Assembly (NCBI GenBank): GCA_051362555.1 | Contig: CM120641.1 | Coordinates: 27,348,401-27,412,400, forward strand | Direction: 5' to 3' | DNA: 64,000 nucleotides | Origin: Lingula anatina | Lineage: Eukaryota; Animalia; Brachiopoda | Shown: positions 13,501 to 47,745 of the stretch, in pieces | How the letters are laid out: every line of letters begins with the position of its first letter | How positions within the stretch are numbered: the first letter of the stretch is position 1 | Made by a program: the position numbers and the translations under genes | Notes under the pieces: model-generated | Told to the model about the DNA's origin: nothing | What the model saw: the letters and a program-made list of their open reading frames with translations, nothing else | Databases searched by the model: none

Positions 13501-16500
13501 CCATTCCACATGAAGTTGATGAAGATGAAAACCGTGCTGTGAAGATTGTAAGAATCATGAGGAAAAATGATCCTCTGGTGGGTTTTTAATGCATTTTACT
13601 TAACAGATTTGTCTTTAATATGAATTTTATTGTGAATTCGATAACTCCATATTAAATAAAGAAAACACTAAAAAAAACTCAGAGAGTGCAGACTTCTGCT
13701 AAGAAAGATCAATCCCCCTTATTAGTTTAATATTTCTTTAAGTAATGGATCATCTAGTTAATGGCTGTTAACTAACAAAGGTAAAAACTTTTAATATGCT
13801 AGCAAAAGCACACTATAGCACTGTACATAGTATTCAGTGAACATTTGTGTTATATTATTAACTATGAATATCAAAAATAAATCATGAGTAATATTTATCT
13901 GTACAGGGTGCTACGATACGATTGAATGAAGAAACGGGTATGATTTATGTTGCTAGAGTGATGATGGGCGGAGCAGCTGACAGAAGTGGTAAGTCATTTA
14001 AGAACCCATATTTCCGTATTTGTTCACATTTCTTGTAGTTCTTGTATAGTATTAAATTAGACTTTGTAGTGTGGTATTCCTAAATAACATGTAACACACA
14101 ATCAATCAGAATATTTTCATTTTCCCTTGTAATGTTAGTTCTAGATATTTTTGAGAGTTTGTCATTGTTGGTATATTAATCACATGCTTTCAACTGACTA
14201 CTTTCGATTTTTATGTACAGACACAGATGTGTCTGTACATATAGCCATCATCTGCGTCTGTCGTCGCCGTCGTCGCCGTGCACTTTTACCGATAACACGA
14301 TAAGTGGAAAACCATTTTACCTTTTGACTTGAAACTTGCAGAACTGATGAATATTCATAATACGCAGGTCAAGTTCGAAAATCAGCATGATCGGGTCACT
14401 TTTAGGGAATTTATGCTGTTTTTTCACTTTTTTCAGCATATATGCAGCACCGATAACACGATAAGTGGAAAACCATTTTACCTTTTGACTTGAAACTTAC
14501 AGAACTGATGAATATTTATAATACGCAGGTCAAGTTTGAAAATCAGCATGATCGGGTCACTTTTAGGGAATTTATGCTGTTTTTTCACTTTTTTCAGCAT
14601 ATATGCAGCACCGATAACACGATAAGTGGAAAACCATTTTACCTTTTGACTTGAAACTTACAGAACTGATGAATATTCATAATACGCAGGTCAAGTTCGA
14701 AAATCAGCATGATTGGGCCATTTTTAGGGAATTTATGCTGTTTTTTCACTATTTTCAATATAAATACAACACTGATAACACAATATAAGAAAAACGGATT
14801 GGCCAATTGTAATTATACTCACAGGAGTGGTCAATCTTACTAAAACGCAGGTTGAGTTCGAAAATCAGCATAATCAGGCCATTATTTTAGAAGTTATACT
14901 GTTTTTCACATTTCCTCAGATTCAATTATTAGGCATGTTAACAGTCTCATTATTTAACTAATAAGATGCCTAAAAGTGTTTGTTTGATATTTCCTGCATC
15001 TTTACAACATTGTTAGTTGATTATGTAAAAAACATGGTAAACTTGTTATCATGTATTGTGTAATAAAGTGTCAAAAATGGAAATAAACTCATATCATTGC
15101 AGTTTGTCAGATTCAATCATCCACTATGTTCAGAATCTCAGAATGGAGGAAATTGGACATTTAACACTGTTCTATTGATACTTTTCCCATCTCATCAATT
15201 TTCTTAGTTGGTCATATAAAATGGCAGTAAAATGTTTATTTTGTTTTATGTTAAAAAAGTGTTAAAAATGGAAATAAACCCATTTCAGAACAGTGCTGTC
15301 TTGTTTACATTTTGGCATTTTCAAGGCGTGACTTTGAAGTTCCATGGGCCTGAAGACCTTTGCTAGTCACATTTTCTGAATATCTGTGAAACAAATATTT
15401 TATAATTAAAAATTGATGGTCATTAAGCTGTTAAACATTATGTAATATTGCATCAAAATTTGAAGAAACCCCTATTTTGGGCACTGCTTCCATGATGACC
15501 ATTTAAGGAAAATCATGTCACTTACTGTTCTCAAACTTACAGGAAAGAAACATGGGACTAAAATACAGCTTCAGTAGGCAATGCAGTCTGTTTGGTATTT
15601 TTATTTATTTATTTTTTTTTTTGGCAGTTAAACAGTTTTTTGTGAAAATTTAATTTTTCACATATTGGCATTTACAAGGTGTGACTTTAAAGTTCCATGA
15701 TCTTGAAGACTTTTGCTTGTCACATTTTCTGAATGTCCATGTTACTAATATTTTATTAATAACATTTGATTGTCATTATGCTGTTAAACATTATGTAATG
15801 TTGCATCAAAATTTGAAGAAACCCCTATTTTGGGCACTGCTCCTATGATGACCATTTAAGGGAAATCATGTCACTTACTGTTCTCAAACTTACAGGAAAG
15901 AAACATGGGTCTAACATACAGCTTCAATAGGCAACGCAGTCTGTTTGGTAAATTTTTCTGGCAATTTAACAGTTTTTTGTGAAAATTTAATTTTTCACTT
16001 ATTTGCATCTTTATTTTCTGTTCTTTGTCTGTACATTTGACAGCTTTGCTGCCTTGTTTTTTTTTTAGGATCAATTCATGTTGGAGATGAAGTCCATGAA
16101 GTAAATGGAATCAATGTCCGTGGCAGAGATCCAGATGATGTCGTACAAATACTGGTATGCGGCTTTATAAGGTTTATATGACAGTAAAAGTTGAAAACCA
16201 TTTTCCAGATAAGTGGTAAAGTCGTTCATACATACAAGAATAGATCTTAAATTATGTAAAGATATCTAAAAGAATTCATCTATTATGCAAAGATTGTATC
16301 TAAAAAATACATTTCTCATACATTCCCCTGATGATTCCACAATCTGATGCAATTCGAATGCTTTGACAAAGATAAATGCAATAGTTGTTTGCAGAGAGCC
16401 TAGCAGTTCTAAAAATGAGTATTGAGAAGCGAGGGACTTCATCACTTTCATTTTTTGATGAAGTGATTGTTTGAGAGAAATGCAGATATTCTCAGTGATT

Positions 16501-19500
16501 TACAACTTTGTGATTTTCAGGCAGCTGCGCAGGGTCCCATTACTCTTAAACTTGTGCCCAGCAATGTGGATAGTAAAATATACAGAGAAAGCAGGGCAAG
16601 TTGTTCTTTTTCATTGACGTCTGCCCTTGTTTGTGTAATTGTTGTATCACAATATACCATACCCCCTAGAAGTTGACTTTGTGATATTGCACTAATTTTG
16701 AAGCAGCAGGATTTCAATGACTATCATTTTAAAGACAAGATCTTGTATATCCTATAAAACACTATAATGCAAATATGTGTGCATTAAAAAGTGAGGCAGA
16801 ATTGAAAACCTGAATCTTTGAATGTAACTCAGTCTGTGCAATTTACATATATTTCTACAATGTACATCTCACAACTCTTTTTGTAACATTCATCATCAAC
16901 AGCCAAACGAATGTCTAAGAATCGAAGATAGAATACATTTACATTCATGACAACTGCTTTGGCTGCTCCTATATTTTGTATGTCCACTTAAAGTTAAATG
17001 TCCACTCACAATACACTAAGTTAAAGCCATGGGAATATCTTGGGCATATTCAGTTCTATTTACAATCCGCAGCGATTAACATCCATTTTCTTTTGCTTCC
17101 TCAGGTTCGAATGCGAGCTCACTTCAACTATGACCCCTTCAAGGACACCCTTATTCCCTGTCGAGAAGCGGGACTGCCCTTTAAGAAGGGGGACATCCTG
17201 CACATAGTGGACCAGACTGACCTGAACTGGTGGCAGGCCAGGAGGGAGGGGGACAAGAATATGAGGGCGGGGCTCATACCTGGGAAACAGTTACAGGAAA
17301 GGTGGGAGATTTATAAGTTTTTAAAAAAAGTGAAGTCTGGTTCTTATGTATTTCTCTGTACTATTTCTCAGTGTGGTTTACAGTACATCACAACAGGGCC
17401 AGTTTTTTTTTTTTCTGCAGACTGGCTGAAGGTATTCTGTCATCACAGGGGAGGATACAGTAATAATAAAATATGCAAATGATAGTGTCACTTTTTGACG
17501 TTTGTTTCATAACACACTGTTTTGATTAACCTTACAGTATGATGGTTAACTATGTTGGTTCTAAAATTGACAGCTAGCTTTATCATTTTAAGTAAACAGG
17601 TAACATTAGACAGCCTATTAGTATTTCACATACTTGAGTATGCATTTACTACAAAACCTGAATGGTACTGCTCAAGTCATGCAGTCGAGTATTCAAATCT
17701 AAATGTGGTCTTCCATGTTTCAGAAAAGAGGCCATGAGACGGACAGTTGGCACATTAGATGGTGGATTGTACAGAGAGAGAGAAAACAAGGGCATCAGGA
17801 GTTCAACAATGAATGGCTCTTTGGATGGTAGGAAAGCAAGGAAAACCAAGAAAATTATGTACCAGTCTGAGAATAGCTCTGGTAAGAAATGTAGAATTGC
17901 AGTTTCATCACAAAATATTTTTTTCGTGGTTGAAAGTTTTCAGGATTATGCCTGATTTCCAGATTTTTAGTCTTCATTTTGATCGTTCTTTTTCATATGG
18001 CCTAAATGACATGAATTTTACAATATGACATAATTTTTACAATCTTCACCCATGCTTTTTCTGCACTGCAGAATGAAAAACAAAATCTTGCAAGAAGGCC
18101 AATTTTTATATCAAAGCTTGCATGCAAAGAAAAAAATTCTTTAATAAAGACTTATTATGGAAATATGCATCAGCAGTATGGGTTTAAATTGGAAATATGA
18201 AATTTTATCAGCTGCTTTATAAGTTATTTCCAGATTTTGACAATGCTGAAAATATATGTGGAATTTTGAAACTGTAGATGATTTATTTCCAGATTTTGAC
18301 AATGCTGAAATTATCACCTATGAAGAAGTTGAAAAATATTATCCAGAATCTGGCAGATACAGACCAATTGTACTCATTGGTGAGTTTGGATTTGGATGTT
18401 TCATTACTTATGGTATTTTGGTATTTGTAAATTAAACTGAATTCAGCAGAGAAAAATAAAATAAGCTTGTGTTGATTAGTACGTATTATTTTAAATGTAA
18501 TGTTTTTATTATGCTGTTTCAGGGCCTCCTGGTGCTGGGAGGAATGAATTGAAAAGACGTCTTATAACTTCCAACCCAGAACATTTCTCAGCCACAATAC
18601 CACGTGAGTCGACTTTATTACATGATGCAAAGCATTGCTTTCATCAAAAAGACACTGTACTTCAGGTTCTTCATATATATTTAGTCTGCAAACTCACAGA
18701 GGACTACATGGAATATGTAATAATGATGTCTGGGGTAGCACTAGCAATTTTTTTCGCTTAGCCATATCACCACATTTTTGTCAATTTGTTATCAAAATGG
18801 TTATAATTTGGCTAAAACATGTCAAATCAAGCCCTTTTTCTTTAGCCAATTGAAGTCAATTTTAGCATTTGGCTAAATTGGCAAGTGTTAGCGCTACCCC
18901 AGGATGTCATTTATAAGTTTTGTATGCATACCAAAGAATGGTTTCATTTGATATTAGAATAAGGGTTCCTATTTGTATGTGTTATAGACACTTCTCGTCC
19001 CAAGAAAACATCCGAAGTGGATGGTAAGGAGTATTATTTTGTCTCCAGAACAGAAATGGATAGGAGAATAGCAGAAAGAAGGTTTGTGTGGCATAAATGA
19101 AGTTTATTTAGTCTTTTATCTTTGAAGTATATTCAGTATTGTCTTCACTGCCTTACAAGCTATATAATAATAGTTTTTAATGAAGTATCTTAGCTTGACA
19201 AATGCCAGCTAGCTCATGTATAACGTTGTCTGGACAAGTGCATATTTAAACCCCATTCCCAGAGATTAGATCGATCTACTTTAGATCAACCTAACTTCCT
19301 GGGGGTTCTCGCTAGATAGCTGTCAGCCGAGTGGGCACGAAAGTTAATTACCCCCTTACAGCTTGTAGTAGGTGGGACGGACATTTAAGCTAGTGAGACT
19401 CCCCACGGGGATAGATCGATCTAAATATCTGGGAATACACCCTTAGAAAATCAAAATTATACCATCAATACTAAATATAAAACACATGTATTATATTTTT

Positions 19501-19875
19501 TCAGTAATAGAAAGATTCTGAAGCAATGTTTGTTACACAATCTTCTTTTTATGAAATTTACTCTGATCAGGCATCATTTAGCTCTTAACTACCGGTACTT
19601 CATTATGAGGTTGTGTTTACAAACGGTCCAAAGTGGACCAGTTGTGAACACAGCTTTTTTTTCTCACTCATATCATAAATGCTGATTATGTTTTGTTTTC
19701 TCAGATTTGTTGAGTATGGAGAATACAAGGGCAACCTGTATGGTACTAGTATAGAGAGTATAACCAGTGCTCTCAATGCAGGAAAGGTCTGTGTACTCAC
19801 ACCACACCCACAGGTAAGCTGAAAGAAATAGATACTGTATTTATGTATATGGAATTGCATGTGCTTGGGAATTAG

Positions 19876-19922
<47 letters not shown>

Positions 19923-20202
19923 AAAAAAATTCACATTTTTATTGGTCTGCCAATTCAATTTTTTATTTATGATACTTTGATTTAATTAAATAATCTGGAT
20001 CTCTTTACTTTCTTAAGTGATAATATATGCTAATAGTTGTGCACAATTTATGCATCTATAGCCAAAGGATGTTCACAAATAAAGTAGTGAAATTATTCAA
20101 GTAATTTTAATTATAACTAGCTTTTGAGAGGTCCTTGATACGTGAACACACTCAAATTTTATTTTAGAAAAAAAAATGCAGTTGACTATTTTAGTATTAG
20201 CT

Positions 20203-20264
<62 letters not shown>

Positions 20265-23200
20265 GCACACACACACTGTGATTTAGGTGGTAGAAATAAG
20301 TTGTAACAGAGCATTTACATGTTGAGGTTATGTGAGTTGTAAACATGTAAACATAAAATTCAAGAGAATGTGCAAATTTTTTTATTTAACTCAACAACAA
20401 TAACATCAATAACATAAATATCCTAAGACTGAAGGCATGACGCCTCATACTTGGTGATCTGTAGGTTCAATTATTTCAGAGGCAGGTTTATGTTCAGAGT
20501 AACCTGTCACTGTCATGAAGATGATTTAGAATAAAATTGAAAAATTTTCTTTCCCAAAATGCACAGTTACTAGTACATTGTCCAGTAAATGTTTTAGATA
20601 CATTTTGACTTCCATCATTGACATTATCATTTACATATTTTATTCAAAGTTTATGCTGTTGCTTACTTTGAAATCAGCGATTTGACCTTCAGTTTTAATT
20701 TTGAAATGCCTTGTTTCAGCAAAGATGCTTTCAGTTTTCTAAGAGCAAGTTTTTGCAGCAAATGAAAGTCATCTTCATTTGCATCTAGGGCATCCATGTG
20801 ATAGATGCCTGCTGCTGATTCTTTAGAAGATTCTTTATGAAAATTGACTGCAACACCAAAATTTTCCAACATTCTCTCATAATCAACTCCTTCATCTTTG
20901 GATCCAAAGAGCCAGATGAATTTTGCCTGGACTGCAGAAAAACCTTTCAATTTTCGTTTGTGTTTTCCTTTGATCTGCTGTTGTCTGGTAAGCTGTAAAC
21001 CAGCGCCCTCTAGAGTGGGTTCTGGTTGGACAAGGGGCTGGACCTCTGCTGGACTGGTAGCAGTTTGCCACGTTTTCTGATTGAAAGGTGTGGTTCCCAT
21101 CGGTGGCAGGGGAGATGTAGAAGAGGATGGAATAGGCATATCAGGCAAAGAGAAATCAAGCCTGTCCTTCAATGTGGTTGCATCGTCTAAGTTTCCATCA
21201 TTTGTGCTGTAGGGATTTGTTGAAGTGCTAGTACTGGTAGGATCTGTAATTAAAATCCAGTAAATAAACTCAGATAAGATCAAAGAATTTGAACTCTCAT
21301 CAGGTAGTATTTCTAAGATTTCCTTTGTGGTTCCATACTGTGGAAAGTATGCTGATAATGCGAGATTGAGTCGAGGAAATAATAGCCCTACTTTTTATCA
21401 TTGTGTAGACTTTGATGGAGCTTAAGATAATGATAGTTGATGTGGAAAATACCGTTATTATTAAAGCCTGTAATTTACATGTAGAAGAGATATGAAGAGT
21501 ACCTGTGGTATATTTTGAATCAGGATAAGAATTGATGACAAAAGTGGTGGCTGGATCTACCAAAGTCACCCTCGTGGAACAGAGTGCAATAATCACCCAG
21601 CATTTTGTAGCCTGAATGAATAAAAACAATAGACGAAAAAGAAGTTTATTTTAATAACAATAATGGAAATCACTTATTTCTATTTGAATAGAATTGTCTC
21701 AGTCAGTTGTTCATTGTAATTCTCCTTTGTATGTGCATAAAAAATAACTCATTATCTATTAGGTAACATAGCAAAAAAAAAATGAATTTGTAATGAAAAG
21801 GTTTTCAGCTTATTATAACCAATAAAAAATGTTGAAATTAATAATTAATAAGTGTAGATTAGCTCTCATGAAACACATAACACTGGGCCATGATAACACT
21901 GAGAAAAGAAAACGTGCTTAGTTTCCTATCAGACCATATATATTCAATTTACAATGCATGGCTTCTCCACTTACCTGCATTATGGATCTCTGACTGCACC
22001 CTCAGCAGTAGAACTATACTGAGTGTAATGTGCACTAGCTTTGACAGTTATATTGAATATCCCTCAGCAGTAGAGACTCCTTTCAAGTACAGGGCATTCT
22101 GTCGCTACCTTTAACTGTCTTTTGGATATATACAGGAGGTTAAAAGAGACGATTAATTACGAGATGAGTGGTCCTGATAACCCCTCAGTCTGTTTCATGC
22201 TCTCTGACTCTCAAATGACTACCTAGGCGAGAGCAATTTTACCACTGAAATTAGGACCATTATTTCTGGCCAGAAAAATGAGCCATGTTGTCAGAAATAT
22301 TTTTTTGTGATAATTAGGATTTCAGCTCTTATTAAATGGCAATATGCATGGGCTGATTGTGGAATTTTTTTTTCAAAAAAGCAATTAATACATTACATGC
22401 TAAATGTACATCATAAGATAAATTATCCAGTTATGTGACACTCCATTTAAGATATCTTAGATTAAAATGAAAGGTGAGAGATGTAATCTTCTTACAGTCA
22501 TTTCAAAGCAATTTATTTTAATAACTTCATCAATAATAAGTTCACATTTCTTGAACAGAATTTAGAAGAAAAAAGGTCAGGTTAATGAGGGAAAGATATG
22601 GTATTGATTTTTCACTAGGATGTCATTTCAACAGTAAAATGAGTTTGATAATCAGTAGCTAGATGTCAAAGTATTGAAAGATTTGGGACGGATGAGCATC
22701 TTTAAGAATAGAATAACCATCAGGGCTTTTATTATGACATTTTTATATGCCCCAGTATTGCATTTAGCATCAAAGTTACATAAAAGAAAATAGATTTTCA
22801 CTATTAGTCTGTCATTCAACGCTAACTGGTAATGGTTTACTTATATAATATGTTGTGCGTACAGATGGAATAAAGGGAAACATAATGGCTTTCCATTGTC
22901 ATGAAGATCAAAGGAAATAAAAAAAAAGTAATATCTAATAAACCATGGACGTCAAGGTAGCCCATGTTGTTTTAAGGCTGGAGAAACTCAACTTTATGGG
23001 GGTGAGTGGGGGGGGGGGCTGGCGTCAGCTGTTGGGAGTAGTGCCGTCTAAGTGTTGCGCCGGGCGTGTTGGTTTCAGAGAGATGTGCTGACGCCAATCC
23101 CTGACATGGTACCCAGAGAAGAAATACACCAAATGATTTGGCAAATACTTCAGCATGTTATCCCTCTTTTTCTAAACATGAAAAAATAATCTTTGAATTA

Positions 23201-23930
23201 ATTAAGAAATTTATTTTTCTAGGCACTGAAAATGCTGAGAAGTGCAGAGTTAAAGCCCTACGTGATCTTTATCAAGCCTCCTTCCATTGAGAGGCTTCGA
23301 GACACGAGACTGGTCCCTACCACCAAGGGCAATACAGATAATGGAATGATACAGAAGACATTTTCAGTGAGGGGTTGTTTTTTTTTTCACCTTTGATGTT
23401 GCGAGGGAGAAATTGCTTCATTTATGTTGGCTTTCGATATACACTAGTTCAAATTACTAAATTGCTGTTGGAGTACTTAAGTGGTTTAACCTTTCATGTC
23501 GTTAGGAAAATGACAGTTGTATTGGATTTCATAACATTTTTTCATTACTTCTGAATCTAATTGAATTATTAAACAGAACTGGTATTTAATACTTTCGTAT
23601 TCTCAGTTGCCTTTATCATTGAAAGTATTTTGATTATTCTAGATACTCTATACACCATTCTTTCATAGTTTCCAAGTTTAGGAGGGAAAAAAGTCTTGTA
23701 AGACTGCTGAAGAATTTAAGTTCATTTGCTTGTAGCATATTTATCTATTCCAGGATGAAGAACTCCATGAAATGATTCTAAATGCATCCAAGATTGAAGA
23801 AAATTACAGTCACTTCTTTGATAAAACAATAGTCAATGATGAACTTACTACAGTGTTCACTGAACTTTGTGCTGCTGTGTACAGAATTGAGCATGAACCG
23901 CAGTGGGTGCCCATCTCATGGGTACGGTGA
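10528..23930 (+). CDS. MPP7: MAGUK p55 subfamily protein, MPP7/MPP3-like (L27-L27-PDZ-SH3-GuK), 16 coding exons, ~582 aa
   Basis: Exons 10528-10573, 11127-11245, 11947-12024, 13061-13141, 13443-13577, 13907-13988, 16069-16154, 16521-16595 (GC donor), 17105-17301, 17724-17881, 18293-18379, 18523-18603, 18988-19081, 19705-19813, 23223-23366, 23754-23930 join in frame (1749 nt). Translation: MPAAV... L27 region ([22 protein letters not shown]), PDZ ([32 protein letters not shown]), SH3 ([33 protein letters not shown]), GuK ([38 protein letters not shown]), C-terminus [11 protein letters not shown]. This closely follows recalled human MPP7. Confidence 0.93.
14208..16057 (+). mobile_element. Helentron-associated interspersed element (HINE/DINE-1-like), copy 1
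   Basis: 5' T-run + TGTACAGACA..TGTCTGTACA palindrome, (GTCGCC)-type microsatellite, internal 161-bp tandem units (14291, 14452, 14613, diverged 14774) and a ~353-bp duplicated module. 3' subterminal TGTCTGTACA followed by hairpin GACAGC-ttt-GCTGCC and a T-run. Confidence 0.8.
18730..18902. mobile_element. Second copy (inverted) of the CTGGGGTAG MITE, 5-bp TSD (GATGT)
   Basis: CTGGGGTAGCACTAGCA..TGTTAGCGCTACCCCAG, with GATGT at 18725-29 and 18903-07. Confidence 0.8.
19249..19442. mobile_element. Tourist/PIF-Harbinger-like MITE (GATCGATC family)
   Basis: Imperfect ~30-bp TIRs (..ATTCCCAGA..TAGATCGATC), TTA on both flanks (19246-48, 19443-45). Homologous to the copies at 4481, 30937 and 37753. 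Confidence 0.75.
19881..19921. repeat. (TG)n microsatellite
   Basis: Direct reading. Confidence 0.9.
20205..20277. repeat. (CT)n(CA)n microsatellite
   Basis: Direct reading. Confidence 0.9.
20639..20644 (-). terminator. Polyadenylation signal of the nested gene
   Basis: AATAAA on the minus strand ~19 nt after the TAA stop at 20663. Confidence 0.45.
20663..21980 (-). CDS. Nested antisense gene: putative secreted Ser/Thr/Pro-rich precursor with cationic amphipathic C-terminus, ~231 aa, 3 exons
   Basis: Exons 21975-21980 (ATG CAG|gtaagt), 21503-21611 and 20663-21243 have compatible phases (0, 1). TATATA at ~22126-22132 lies upstream and AATAAA at 20639-20644 lies just after the stop. The long last-exon ORF (206 codons in the ORF track) is anomalous for AT-rich intron DNA. 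The exon-2 donor (AG|gtactc) is weak. Confidence 0.7.
22126..22132 (-). promoter_or_regulatory. TATA box of the nested antisense gene
   Basis: TATATAT on the minus strand about 150 nt upstream of ATG 21980, consistent with a ~120-nt 5' UTR. Confidence 0.45.
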
Positions 23931-24198
23931 CATGACAGAACATGAACCCCAGCGGGTGCCCATTTCATGGATACAGTGACATGACAGGACATGAACCCCA
24001 GTGGGTGCCCATCTCTGGGTACAGTGACATGAAAGAACATCAACCACAGTGGGTTCCCATCTCTGGGTACGGTGACATGAAAGAACATGAACCACAGTGG
24101 GTGCCCATTTCATGGGTACAGAGGCATGACAGGACATGAACCCCGGTGGGTGCCCATCGGATGGGTTTAATGCCATGACATAATGTGAACCCCAGTGG
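23892..24198 (+). repeat. 48/49-bp tandem array made of the MPP7 C-terminal codons plus stop (6 copies + partial)
   Basis: Units start at 23892, 23941, 23990, 24038, 24086 and 24135, with a partial at ~24184. Consensus CATGAACCNCAGTGGGTGCCCATYTC(A)TGGGTACRGTGACATGAMAGRA. Confidence 0.95.
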
Positions 24199-25285: not shown

Positions 25286-27367
25286 TTTTTTATGTACAGA
25301 CACAGATGTGTCTGTACATATTGCCATCACCTGCGTCTGTCGTCGCCGTCGCCGTCGCCGTCGCCGATCATGTCGCCGTGCACTTCCAGCGTTAACACCA
25401 TAAGTGGAAGACAGTTTTACTTTTTGGCTTTATATTTACAGAGCTGATGAATATTCATAAAACGCAGGTCAAGTTCGAAAATCAGCATGATCAGGCCATT
25501 ATTGTAGAATTTATGCTGTTTTTTCACTTTTCAGCATATATGCAACACTGTTAACACATTTCAAGGAAAACCCATAAACCTGTTGTCATGAAACTCACAG
25601 GAGTAATCAATCTTACTAAAACGCAGGTCAAGTTCAAAAATCAGCATAATCGGACCATTATTTTATAAGTTATGCTGTTTTTTCACATTTCCTCAGATTC
25701 AATTCTTAGGCATGTTAACAGTCTCATTATTTAATTAATAAGATATGTAAAAGTGTTTGTTTGACATTTCCTGCATCTTTACAACATTGTTAGTTGATTA
25801 CGTAAAAATGATGGTAAACTTGTAATCATGTATTGTGTAATAAGGTGTCAAAAATGGAAATAAACTCATATCATTGCAGTTTGTAAGATTCAATCATTCA
25901 CTGTGTTCAGAAACTCAGAATGGAGGAAATTGGACATTTGGCACTGTTGTATTGATATTTTTCACATCTCATCAATTTTCTTAGTTGATCATATAAAAAT
26001 GGCAGTAAACTGTTAATTTTGTTTTATGTTAAAAAAGTGTTAAAAATGGAAATAAACCCATTTCAGAATAGTGCTGTCTTGTTTCACATTTCCTCAGATT
26101 CAATTTTTAAGCATGTTAACAGTTTCATTTTTTAATTAATAAGATAAGTAAAAGTGTTTGTTTGACATTTCCTGCATCTTTACAACATTGTTAGTTGATT
26201 TTGTAAAAATGATGGTAAACTTGTTATCATGTATTGTGTAATAAAGTTTCAAAAATGGAAATAAACTCATATCATTGCAGTTTGTAAGATTCAATCATCC
26301 ACTACGTTTAGAAACTCAGAATGGAGGAAATTGGACATTTGACACAGTTCTACTGATATTTTTCACATCTCATCAATTTTCTTAGTTGATCATACAAAAA
26401 TGGCAGTAAACTGCTAATTTTGTTTTATGTTAAGAAAAGTGTTAAAAATAGGAAAAAAAACCTTTCAGAACAGTGCTGTCTTGTTTACATTTTGGCATTT
26501 TCAAGTTGTGACTTTGAAGTTCCATGGGCCTGAAGACCTTTGCCAGTCACATTTTCTGAATATCCATAATACTAATATTTTATTTTATTTTATTAAAAAA
26601 TGATGGTCATTATGCTGTTAAACGTTATGTAATATTGCATCAAAATTTGGAAAAAAATATTTTGGCACTGCTCCCATGATGACCATATAAGAAAAATCAT
26701 GTCATTTTCTGTTCTCAATCTTAGAGGAAAGTAACAGGGGACTAAAATACAGCTTCAGTAGGCAATGCAGTCTGTTTGGTAATTCTTTCTGCTAGTTAAA
26801 CAGTTTTTTTTTTTTTTTTTGTGAAAATTTAATTTTTCACATATTGGCATTTTCAAGGTGTGACTTTGAAGTTCCTTGGGCTTGAAGACCCATGCTAGTC
26901 ACATTTTCTGAAAATCCATGATACGTATATTTTATTATTAAAAATTGACGGTCATTATGCTGTTAATCATTATGTAATATTGCATCAGAATAGAAGAAAA
27001 CACAATTTTGGGTGCTGCTGCCATGATGACCATTATGGGAAAACCATGTTACTGATGATTGCCAAACGTTCAAAAAAGAAATACAGGACTAAAATGCAGC
27101 CTGAGTTGGAAAAGCAGTCTAATTGGCTTCTTTTTCTGGAAGTTATACATTTTCAAAGTGTGAACTTGAACTGCCATGGGCCTGAAGCCTTATGCTTGTT
27201 ACACATTTTACTTACATTGATATTACCTGTTGAGCATAATTAAAATTTGATGTTGAATTTGCAGTTTGACATAATGTACTTTTGCATCAGAATTGACAGT
27301 AGCCTATTTTGTGCATAGTTATTTCCTGCTTTTTGTCTGTACATTTGACAGCTTTGCTGCCTTGTTT
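25286..27367 (+). mobile_element. HINE/DINE-1-like element, copy 2 (downstream of the MPP7 stop)
   Basis: Same termini as 14208-16057, but a different internal module dosage: ~401-bp module duplicated at 25681/26082 and ~350-bp module at ~26492/26844 plus a degenerate ~27150. Confidence 0.8.
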
Positions 27368-30913: not shown

Positions 30914-31378
30914 GGACCCAATCCCCATGAAACTATGAGACCATTTCCACAGATATTTAGATCGATCTATCCCCCTGGGGAGTCTCACTAGCTTGCTGTC
31001 AGCTTAACCGGCTTAAATGTCTGTCCCGCCTACTAAAAGCTGTAAGGGGGTAATTAACTTTTGTGCGCACTCGGCTCCGGGAAGCTGACAGCAATTTAGC
31101 ATGAACCCCCAGGGAGTTAGGACGATCCAGATGGATCGATCTAAATCTGTGGGAACCCAGTCTATCAGTCTAGATAGATCAATCCAACTCCATGGGGACT
31201 CTCCCTGAATGAATCAGATTAAGACATTAACACACCTCCCCATTTCCAACATACTCGTACCAGCTTTTCTGTATTCTGCTCAACGCCAGGAGGTACGTTA
31301 ATCTGATTGCACTTAGTGAGAGTACCCACAGAGTTAGATTAATCTACGTAGAATGAAAGTTCCATCGGGAATGAGCCC
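30914..31378. mobile_element. Older long-TIR (foldback) MITE interrupted by 30937-31162
   Basis: Joining 30914-30936 to 31166-31225 gives the diverged reverse complement of 31295-31378 (~85-bp arms). Confidence 0.65.
30937..31162. mobile_element. MITE of the same GATCGATC family, nested in a foldback MITE
   Basis: Same internal sequence (AAGCTGTAAGGGGGTAATTA, GAACCCCCAGGGAGTTAGG), flanked by TAT/TAT. Confidence 0.75.

Positions 31379-31910: not shown

Positions 31911-47745
<15,835 letters not shown>

Follow-up and report, generated by a model that had tools for sequence, protein, structure and literature searches.

A 64,000-nucleotide stretch of the Lingula anatina genome (GenBank assembly GCA_051362555.1, contig CM120641.1, positions 27,348,401 to 27,412,400; the window in what follows) carries a probable gene on the minus strand that is nested in an intron of a MAGUK gene of the p55 subfamily. 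Three minus-strand exons join into a frame of 231 amino acids with no internal stop, as verified by a direct check of the letters, and this frame is very probably a real protein-coding gene. With somewhat less than even confidence, the gene is read here as narrowly expressed and lineage-restricted, coding for a secreted protein in which a signal-like segment is followed by a stalk rich in Pro, Thr and Ser and by a small basic-faced domain of ferredoxin-like (SEA-like) type. An earlier interpretation made from the letters alone, the sequence-only reading, had proposed the same gene as a precursor of helical antimicrobial or cytolytic peptides.

Structure of the nested gene

All exons of the nested gene lie within one host intron, on the strand opposite to the host. 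The host intron (19814..23222, plus strand; 3409 nt, GT-AG) separates two guanylate-kinase-domain exons of the MAGUK gene. Of the 30 introns modelled in the window (median 411 nt), no other is as long. It was confirmed in all four RNA runs, in which loose read ends at 23221 carry the letters of the preceding host exon.

The coding end of exon 1 (Met-Gln; 21980-21975, minus strand) comprises 6 nt in phase 0, with an A at position -3 of the ATG and an upstream stop in the same frame. Exon 2 (21611-21503, minus strand; 109 nt) encodes a signal-peptide-like hydrophobic segment and is followed by a phase-1 intron. The coding part of exon 3 (21243-20663, minus strand) measures 581 nt including the TAA stop, has a positive coding score and is touched by scattered reads of RNA runs X1, X7 and X9. 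Both introns are GT-AG. A TATA-like hexamer (TATATA; 22132-22127, minus strand) is, on a weak basis, a candidate promoter element, and an AATAAA 19 nt past the stop (20644-20639, minus strand) is a candidate polyadenylation signal; another AATAAA follows beyond it at 20386. The exons, the junctions 21975/21611 and 21503/21243, the TATA box and the AATAAA of the sequence-only reading were all present at these positions, and its hidden spliced antisense gene is supported by exon structure, coding score and splice sites. The presumed 5' leader also holds a four-codon upstream open reading frame at 22097.

Coding and splice-site statistics

For coding potential, a 3-periodic model was fitted to the genes of the window itself, at order 1 and order 2. 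Exon 3 scored +0.20 and +0.25 bits per codon, respectively, and leave-one-out chunks of the host genes scored 0.11-0.52. The five other frames of exon 3 ranged from -0.48 to +0.01 bits per codon, and negative values were obtained for all 25 intronic open frames. Within intron 2, the stretch that continues the frame immediately ahead of acceptor 2 gave -0.26/-0.20 bits per codon, indicating that the coding signal begins at the predicted acceptor. Donor 1 is the strongest donor of the intron and better than 663 of 663 background GT sites; acceptor 1 was matched or exceeded by 1 of 638 background AG sites.

Exon 2 was about neutral in coding score, and the GC content at third codon positions of the nested gene (0.37) was below that of the host genes (0.44-0.63). 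Both values would suit a young or decaying locus of little if any function, be it a de novo frame, a leaky antisense transcript or a mobile-element relic, as would the finding that 5 of 100 simulated windows produced an open frame of the length of exon 3 (193 codons; none of the 100 produced one of 243 codons). Such a locus is nevertheless an improbable explanation, since the coding score is specific to one frame and bounded by the acceptor, and since donor 1 and acceptor 1 are near-perfect.

RNA evidence

RNA reads came from four of nine runs under the same species label, with a 95% likeness filter and with 6-30% of each run read. Expression of the nested gene was near zero in the four runs, which again is compatible with a locus of little function. 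Run X4, which behaves as a stranded library, reached a depth of about 16-fold over the host exon and left no reads on the nested gene, and X1, X7 and X9 placed a few reads on the nested gene, some of them unspliced across or inside intron 2. At the host exon 23223-23366 (144 nt), the reads differed from the window at nine sites, all nine synonymous, which reflects either very high polymorphism or a cryptic relative, filed under the name of the species, as the source of the runs. The animals sequenced thus differ from the window, and the 95% filter may therefore discard reads from a gene that evolves fast.

A tally of the per-bin depths of run X1 pointed to a spliced fragment. Fourteen reads were placed, 12 of which are accounted for elsewhere. 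The other two leave 60, 0, 0, 162 and 62 bases over five adjacent bins. Two reads of 151 nt or less, if unsplit, could not produce this pattern, so that a split read is needed. Under the assumption of one pair with mates of 151 nt or trimmed equally, 219 canonical introns across the gap were enumerated (170 on the plus and 49 on the minus strand), and five fit. All five are minus-strand introns with donor 21503, and one is the predicted intron 21244-21502. Most solutions also end at 21614, as expected with intron 1 removed; solutions that retain intron 1 exist as well. Minus-strand splicing at donor 21503 is thus deduced from one molecule, and it argues against a non-functional locus.

Several points weigh against a genuine gene. 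No splice joint was listed for it in the four runs; of the RNA check suggested by the sequence-only reading, then, the fit of one X1 pair to donor 21503 was obtained and a listed joint was not. Most of the X1, X7 and X9 reads over the nested gene may be host pre-mRNA, because X1 also has intronic reads outside the gene. The second intron has ordinary splice sites, its donor being reached by 130 of 663 background sites and its acceptor by 30 of 638. The TATA-like and AATAAA hexamers each occur at about 2.5 per kb in the background and hence add little support.

The same reads bear on the position of the second donor. If the C-terminal domain is real and the N-terminus different, exon 2 could extend to an in-frame donor at 21479 (239 aa) or 21392 (268 aa), the 268-aa form adding a second hydrophobic stretch that could be a membrane anchor. 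These donors score 5.5 and 6.9 against 2.4 for 21503, and unspliced X1 and X9 reads lie in the stretch past 21503. As those reads can be host pre-mRNA and the sole spliced fragment fits donor 21503 only, an extended exon 2 is highly improbable.

In Drosophila, nested intronic genes on the opposite strand are described as common, quickly evolving and narrow in expression (PMC3814207). The present gene differs from those in lying in a non-model invertebrate and in being absent from the assembly's proteins. Opposite-strand nesting itself is already known; the product here is an orphan. As a likely real gene missing from the assembly's protein set, it shows narrowly expressed orphans hiding in host introns.

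Searches for relatives

Pfam returned no family for the exon-3 frame (E up to 1) or for any of six sub-pieces of the nested protein (E up to 10), PHROGs and NCBIfam gave no match for either of two proteins, and Rfam gave none at E up to 1. The word-seeded protein search yielded none of 189 candidates at E 0.1 and none of 98 longer candidates at E 10, and phmmer found no match at E 0.001 among 1.84 billion representatives. Pattern matches in metagenome, viral and prokaryote contigs were confirmed in 0 of 183, 0 of 30 and 0 of 98 cases, respectively. The PDB sequence search gave four rows (E 0.15-0.46), which were judged to be chance. With all protein, family and contig searches blank, the statement of the sequence-only reading that no homologue was recognised is borne out. 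The window's Wnt9 is in the protein collection and the nested protein is not, indicating that the nested gene is apparently unannotated.

Nothing marked the product as a transposon or viral protein: no profile matched, no second copy of the nested gene occurs within the window, and no terminal repeats were found around it. A transposon-protein match, the counter-evidence that the earlier interpretation had itself named, was thus looked for and not found. The blank searches, and the absence from the assembly's proteins although Wnt9 is present, are also what a young or decaying locus would give; the modular composition of the protein, together with the lack of a transposon family match, of a second copy in the window and of terminal repeats, speaks against it.

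N-terminus, linker and basic cluster

Residues 1-25 are hydrophobic with a net charge of +1, and their core is short and broken by Arg16. By a heuristic, the longest hydrophobic run was 10, the best 8-mer 2.86 and the best 12-mer 1.88. Among 64 intronic ATG frames, one equalled or exceeded all three scores together. Set against 50 Wnt9 N-termini, the scores fell inside the spread, with 31 (8-mer), 14 (12-mer) and 19 (run) of these N-termini no higher. A signal peptide is therefore plausible from the residues; the hydrophobic N-terminus claimed earlier is signal-like by this heuristic, but its core is short and contains Arg16. The phase-1 intron follows directly after the signal-like exon 2, and phase-1 introns are over-represented near signal-peptide cleavage sites (PMC1626468).

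The next segment is a Pro/Thr/Ser-rich linker (residues 26-126; 20981..21542, minus strand) that spans intron 2, with 43% Ser, Thr and Pro and a net charge of -6. It is likely to be disordered and, if secreted, O-glycosylated. The basic cluster (residues 127-141; 20936..20980, minus strand) has a net charge of +6 and a Lys-Arg pair (KR) at 134-135, and is a possible convertase site or nuclear localisation signal. No hydrophobic 19-residue window was found outside the N-terminus, and the stop comes right after the last strand (no membrane anchor).

The protein could instead be an intracellular, possibly nuclear, nucleic-acid binder with a disordered Ser/Thr/Pro region, a nuclear localisation signal at residues 130-138, an RRM-like basic-faced domain and no working signal peptide. 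The basic cluster with its net charge of +6, which we take to resemble a monopartite nuclear localisation signal, and the short hydrophobic core at the N-terminus are in line with this, whereas N-terminal scores as rare among chance frames as 1 in 64 are not. We regard such a role as unlikely, also in light of the fold evidence given below.

The lysine- and leucine-rich tail

The last 34 residues (198-231) contain 9 Lys, 1 Arg and 10 Leu and no Asp, Glu or Cys, and 47% of them are hydrophobic. Net charge changes from -7 over residues 142-197 to +10 over residues 198-231, so the acidic stretch before a Cys-free Lys/Leu-rich tail was confirmed. The amphipathic helix attributed to this tail was not. 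Its helical hydrophobic moment was 0.06 against a shuffle mean of 0.18, and that of residues 198-216 was 0.20 against 0.25. The best 11-residue window reached 0.51 (shuffle mean 0.57, P 0.70), and the best 18-residue window gave a P of 0.37. At 100 degrees, the moments of the tail, the helix and the best windows were not above those of shuffles (P 0.37-0.91), and on a helical wheel Leu and Lys are distributed all round. Residues 219-229 alternate in a strand-like manner; their moment at 170 degrees was 0.76, with a P of 0.015 for the segment as selected. With the best window picked blind, the strand-like alternation of the last 11-15 residues had a P of 0.10.

The nested protein has dibasic pairs only at 134-135, 135-136 and 207-208. 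Residues 137-206 contain none, so no pair precedes Phe198 and one (207-208) falls inside the tail. No C-terminal Gly amidation signal was found. Release of the tail as an antimicrobial peptide (AMP) or cytolysin is disfavoured by these positions, and the second released peptide envisaged after the basic cluster was neither amphipathic nor provided with a C-terminal dibasic site.

It is consequently doubtful that the protein is a prepro-precursor whose acidic stretch would balance the charge of a cationic peptide at the C-terminus, and from which that peptide would be excised to serve as an antimicrobial or cytolysin. This explanation draws on the signal-like N-terminus and on the adjoining -7 region and +10 Cys-free tail, and the layout is the usual one: AMP precursors carry a signal peptide and often an anionic pro-piece complementing the cationic peptide, which is generally released at dibasic sites (PMC6887943). 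Lineage-restricted linear cationic AMPs also have a precedent in the myticalins of mussels, a multigene family with a Lys-Arg site (PMC5577615). The nested protein shares with such precursors (myticalins, anuran prepro-AMPs) the signal-like segment, an anionic stretch next to a cationic Cys-free one, and taxonomic restriction. It differs from them in its 231 aa with a 100-residue Pro/Thr/Ser linker, in the lack of a dibasic site bounding the cationic stretch, in amphipathicity no higher than in shuffles, and in having no paralogue in the window or the protein collections, whereas the myticalins form a family. Melittin-type precursors are a further linear cationic comparison. Neither Pfam nor the PDB sequences gave a match to the tail at E up to 10, and the predicted fold takes it in. 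A cationic hydrophobic tail could still be active as a peptide; the results lower membership among the AMPs more than they exclude activity. As the melittin- or magainin-like claim failed two defining tests, the expected payoff is modest.

Predicted C-terminal fold

Residues 142-231 (20666..20935, minus strand) were predicted, in low-confidence models, to form a beta-alpha-beta-beta-alpha-beta (ferredoxin-like) domain. The models came from two single-sequence AlphaFold2 runs with predicted local distance difference test (pLDDT) values of 49 and 56. Both runs gave strand, helix, strand, strand and helix, the second adding the last strand, and confidence was highest in the long helix. With the same low confidence, the tail appeared as the last helix and strand of one alpha/beta domain that includes the acidic part. 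Most of the best-ranked rows of the fold search were two-layer alpha/beta domains of the ferredoxin type, with matches that span the full model.

The top row, adenovirus E4-ORF3 (4djb), was taken as a common fold. E4-ORF3, ACT, ribosomal S6 and IS608 TnpA are 7-15% identical to the nested domain over a low-confidence model, with no evidence of homology or shared function. Rows with the HUH transposase/Rep fold were rejected because the His-x-His pair and the helix Tyr, which make up the HUH motif, are missing and spliceosomal introns are present. The ferredoxin-like topology is common to RRM, KH-like and ribosomal proteins among the fold rows, as a nucleic-acid binder would have it, but the Pfam RRM profile was not matched at E up to 10, and aromatic RNP1 residues are not apparent in the third strand.

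SEA domains share this topology, are found in mucin-like glycosylated proteins and escape detection by sequence (10.64898/2026.05.06.723240). The nested protein has in common with SEA-domain glycoproteins such as MUC1 and Msb2 the Pro/Thr/Ser-rich stretch. It departs from them in its domain of about 90 aa with a short first helix and a strongly basic C-terminal face, in lacking the membrane anchor usual in membrane mucins, and in the absence of a sequence match. The SEA-like assignment is weakened by two results: SEA-type entries did not stand out among the fold-search rows, although the domain may still belong to the family, and the Pfam SEA profile gave no match at E up to 10. Rows for PCDH15 MAD12, a fold neighbour, were no better than dozens of unrelated folds.

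For the preferred reading of a secreted protein with a stalk and a small domain, we infer the following course. The N-terminal hydrophobic segment would direct the protein into the secretory pathway, and residues 26-126 would form an O-glycosylated Pro/Thr/Ser stalk. Residues 142-231 would fold as a ferredoxin-like (SEA-like) unit in which the acidic first part packs with the basic last helix and strand. The exposed Lys-rich face may bind anionic surfaces such as glycans, mucus or matrix, and possibly membranes, and a cut at KR 134-135 could free the domain of about 96 residues whole. If true, a secreted, stand-alone SEA-/ferredoxin-like domain with a basic face would enlarge the set of extracellular scaffolds by a small new one, from an invertebrate lineage that has been little sampled. 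In a rather improbable extension, the gene would be the founder of an unannotated, lineage-restricted secreted defence or mucus family. The cut at KR 134-135 would free a domain of ferredoxin fold, and the Lys/Leu-rich helix and strand of this folded effector, not a linear peptide, would attack microbial membranes or coat them.

Host gene, neighbouring genes and repeats

The window has a GC content of 35%. Its plus strand carries the p55-type MAGUK gene, and its minus strand, in addition to the nested gene, NSF and Wnt9. The stop-free host model has 15 exons, including L27, PDZ-like, SH3 and guanylate-kinase-like ones. L27 and SH3 domain matches place it in the p55 subfamily, and its best PDB sequence match is MPP5; MPP7, the name given in the sequence-only reading, is a putative identity within that subfamily. 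One of the 14 modelled MAGUK introns is GC-AG (16596-17104). A 32-nt duplication (18224-18255 and 18283-18314) repeats a MAGUK acceptor and the first exon bases 59 nt upstream, and splicing at the upstream copy would shift the frame. A tandem array (23892-24198; 49-nt unit, 6.3 copies, 84% matches) begins within the last MAGUK codons and extends into the 3' untranslated region, so that its unit copies the C-terminal coding end and the stop of the gene.

Wnt9 showed 51-60% identity over long alignments to mollusc, annelid and amphioxus proteins. A tree built from 19 of 120 matches, with no echinoderm, hemichordate or ecdysozoan among the 19, placed it with molluscs and Owenia (99/96). This points to an invertebrate, likely a lophotrochozoan, that has no near relative among the matches. 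NSF adjoins Wnt9 on the same strand (about 32000-64000). Vertebrate NSF also adjoins WNT3/WNT9B, and by this analogy the neighbourhood may be an old microsynteny.

Two repeats were also observed. An element of about 2 kb is present in two copies (14208-16059 and 25287-27367; about 80-93% identical), with internal tandem units of 161 and 401 nt and a CGTCGC microsatellite near one end, and looks like a non-autonomous mobile element. A second element of about 200 nt, in three copies (19245-19449, 30943-31155 and 37746-37960; 76-84% identical), resembles a miniature inverted-repeat transposable element in that its ends look like inverted repeats.
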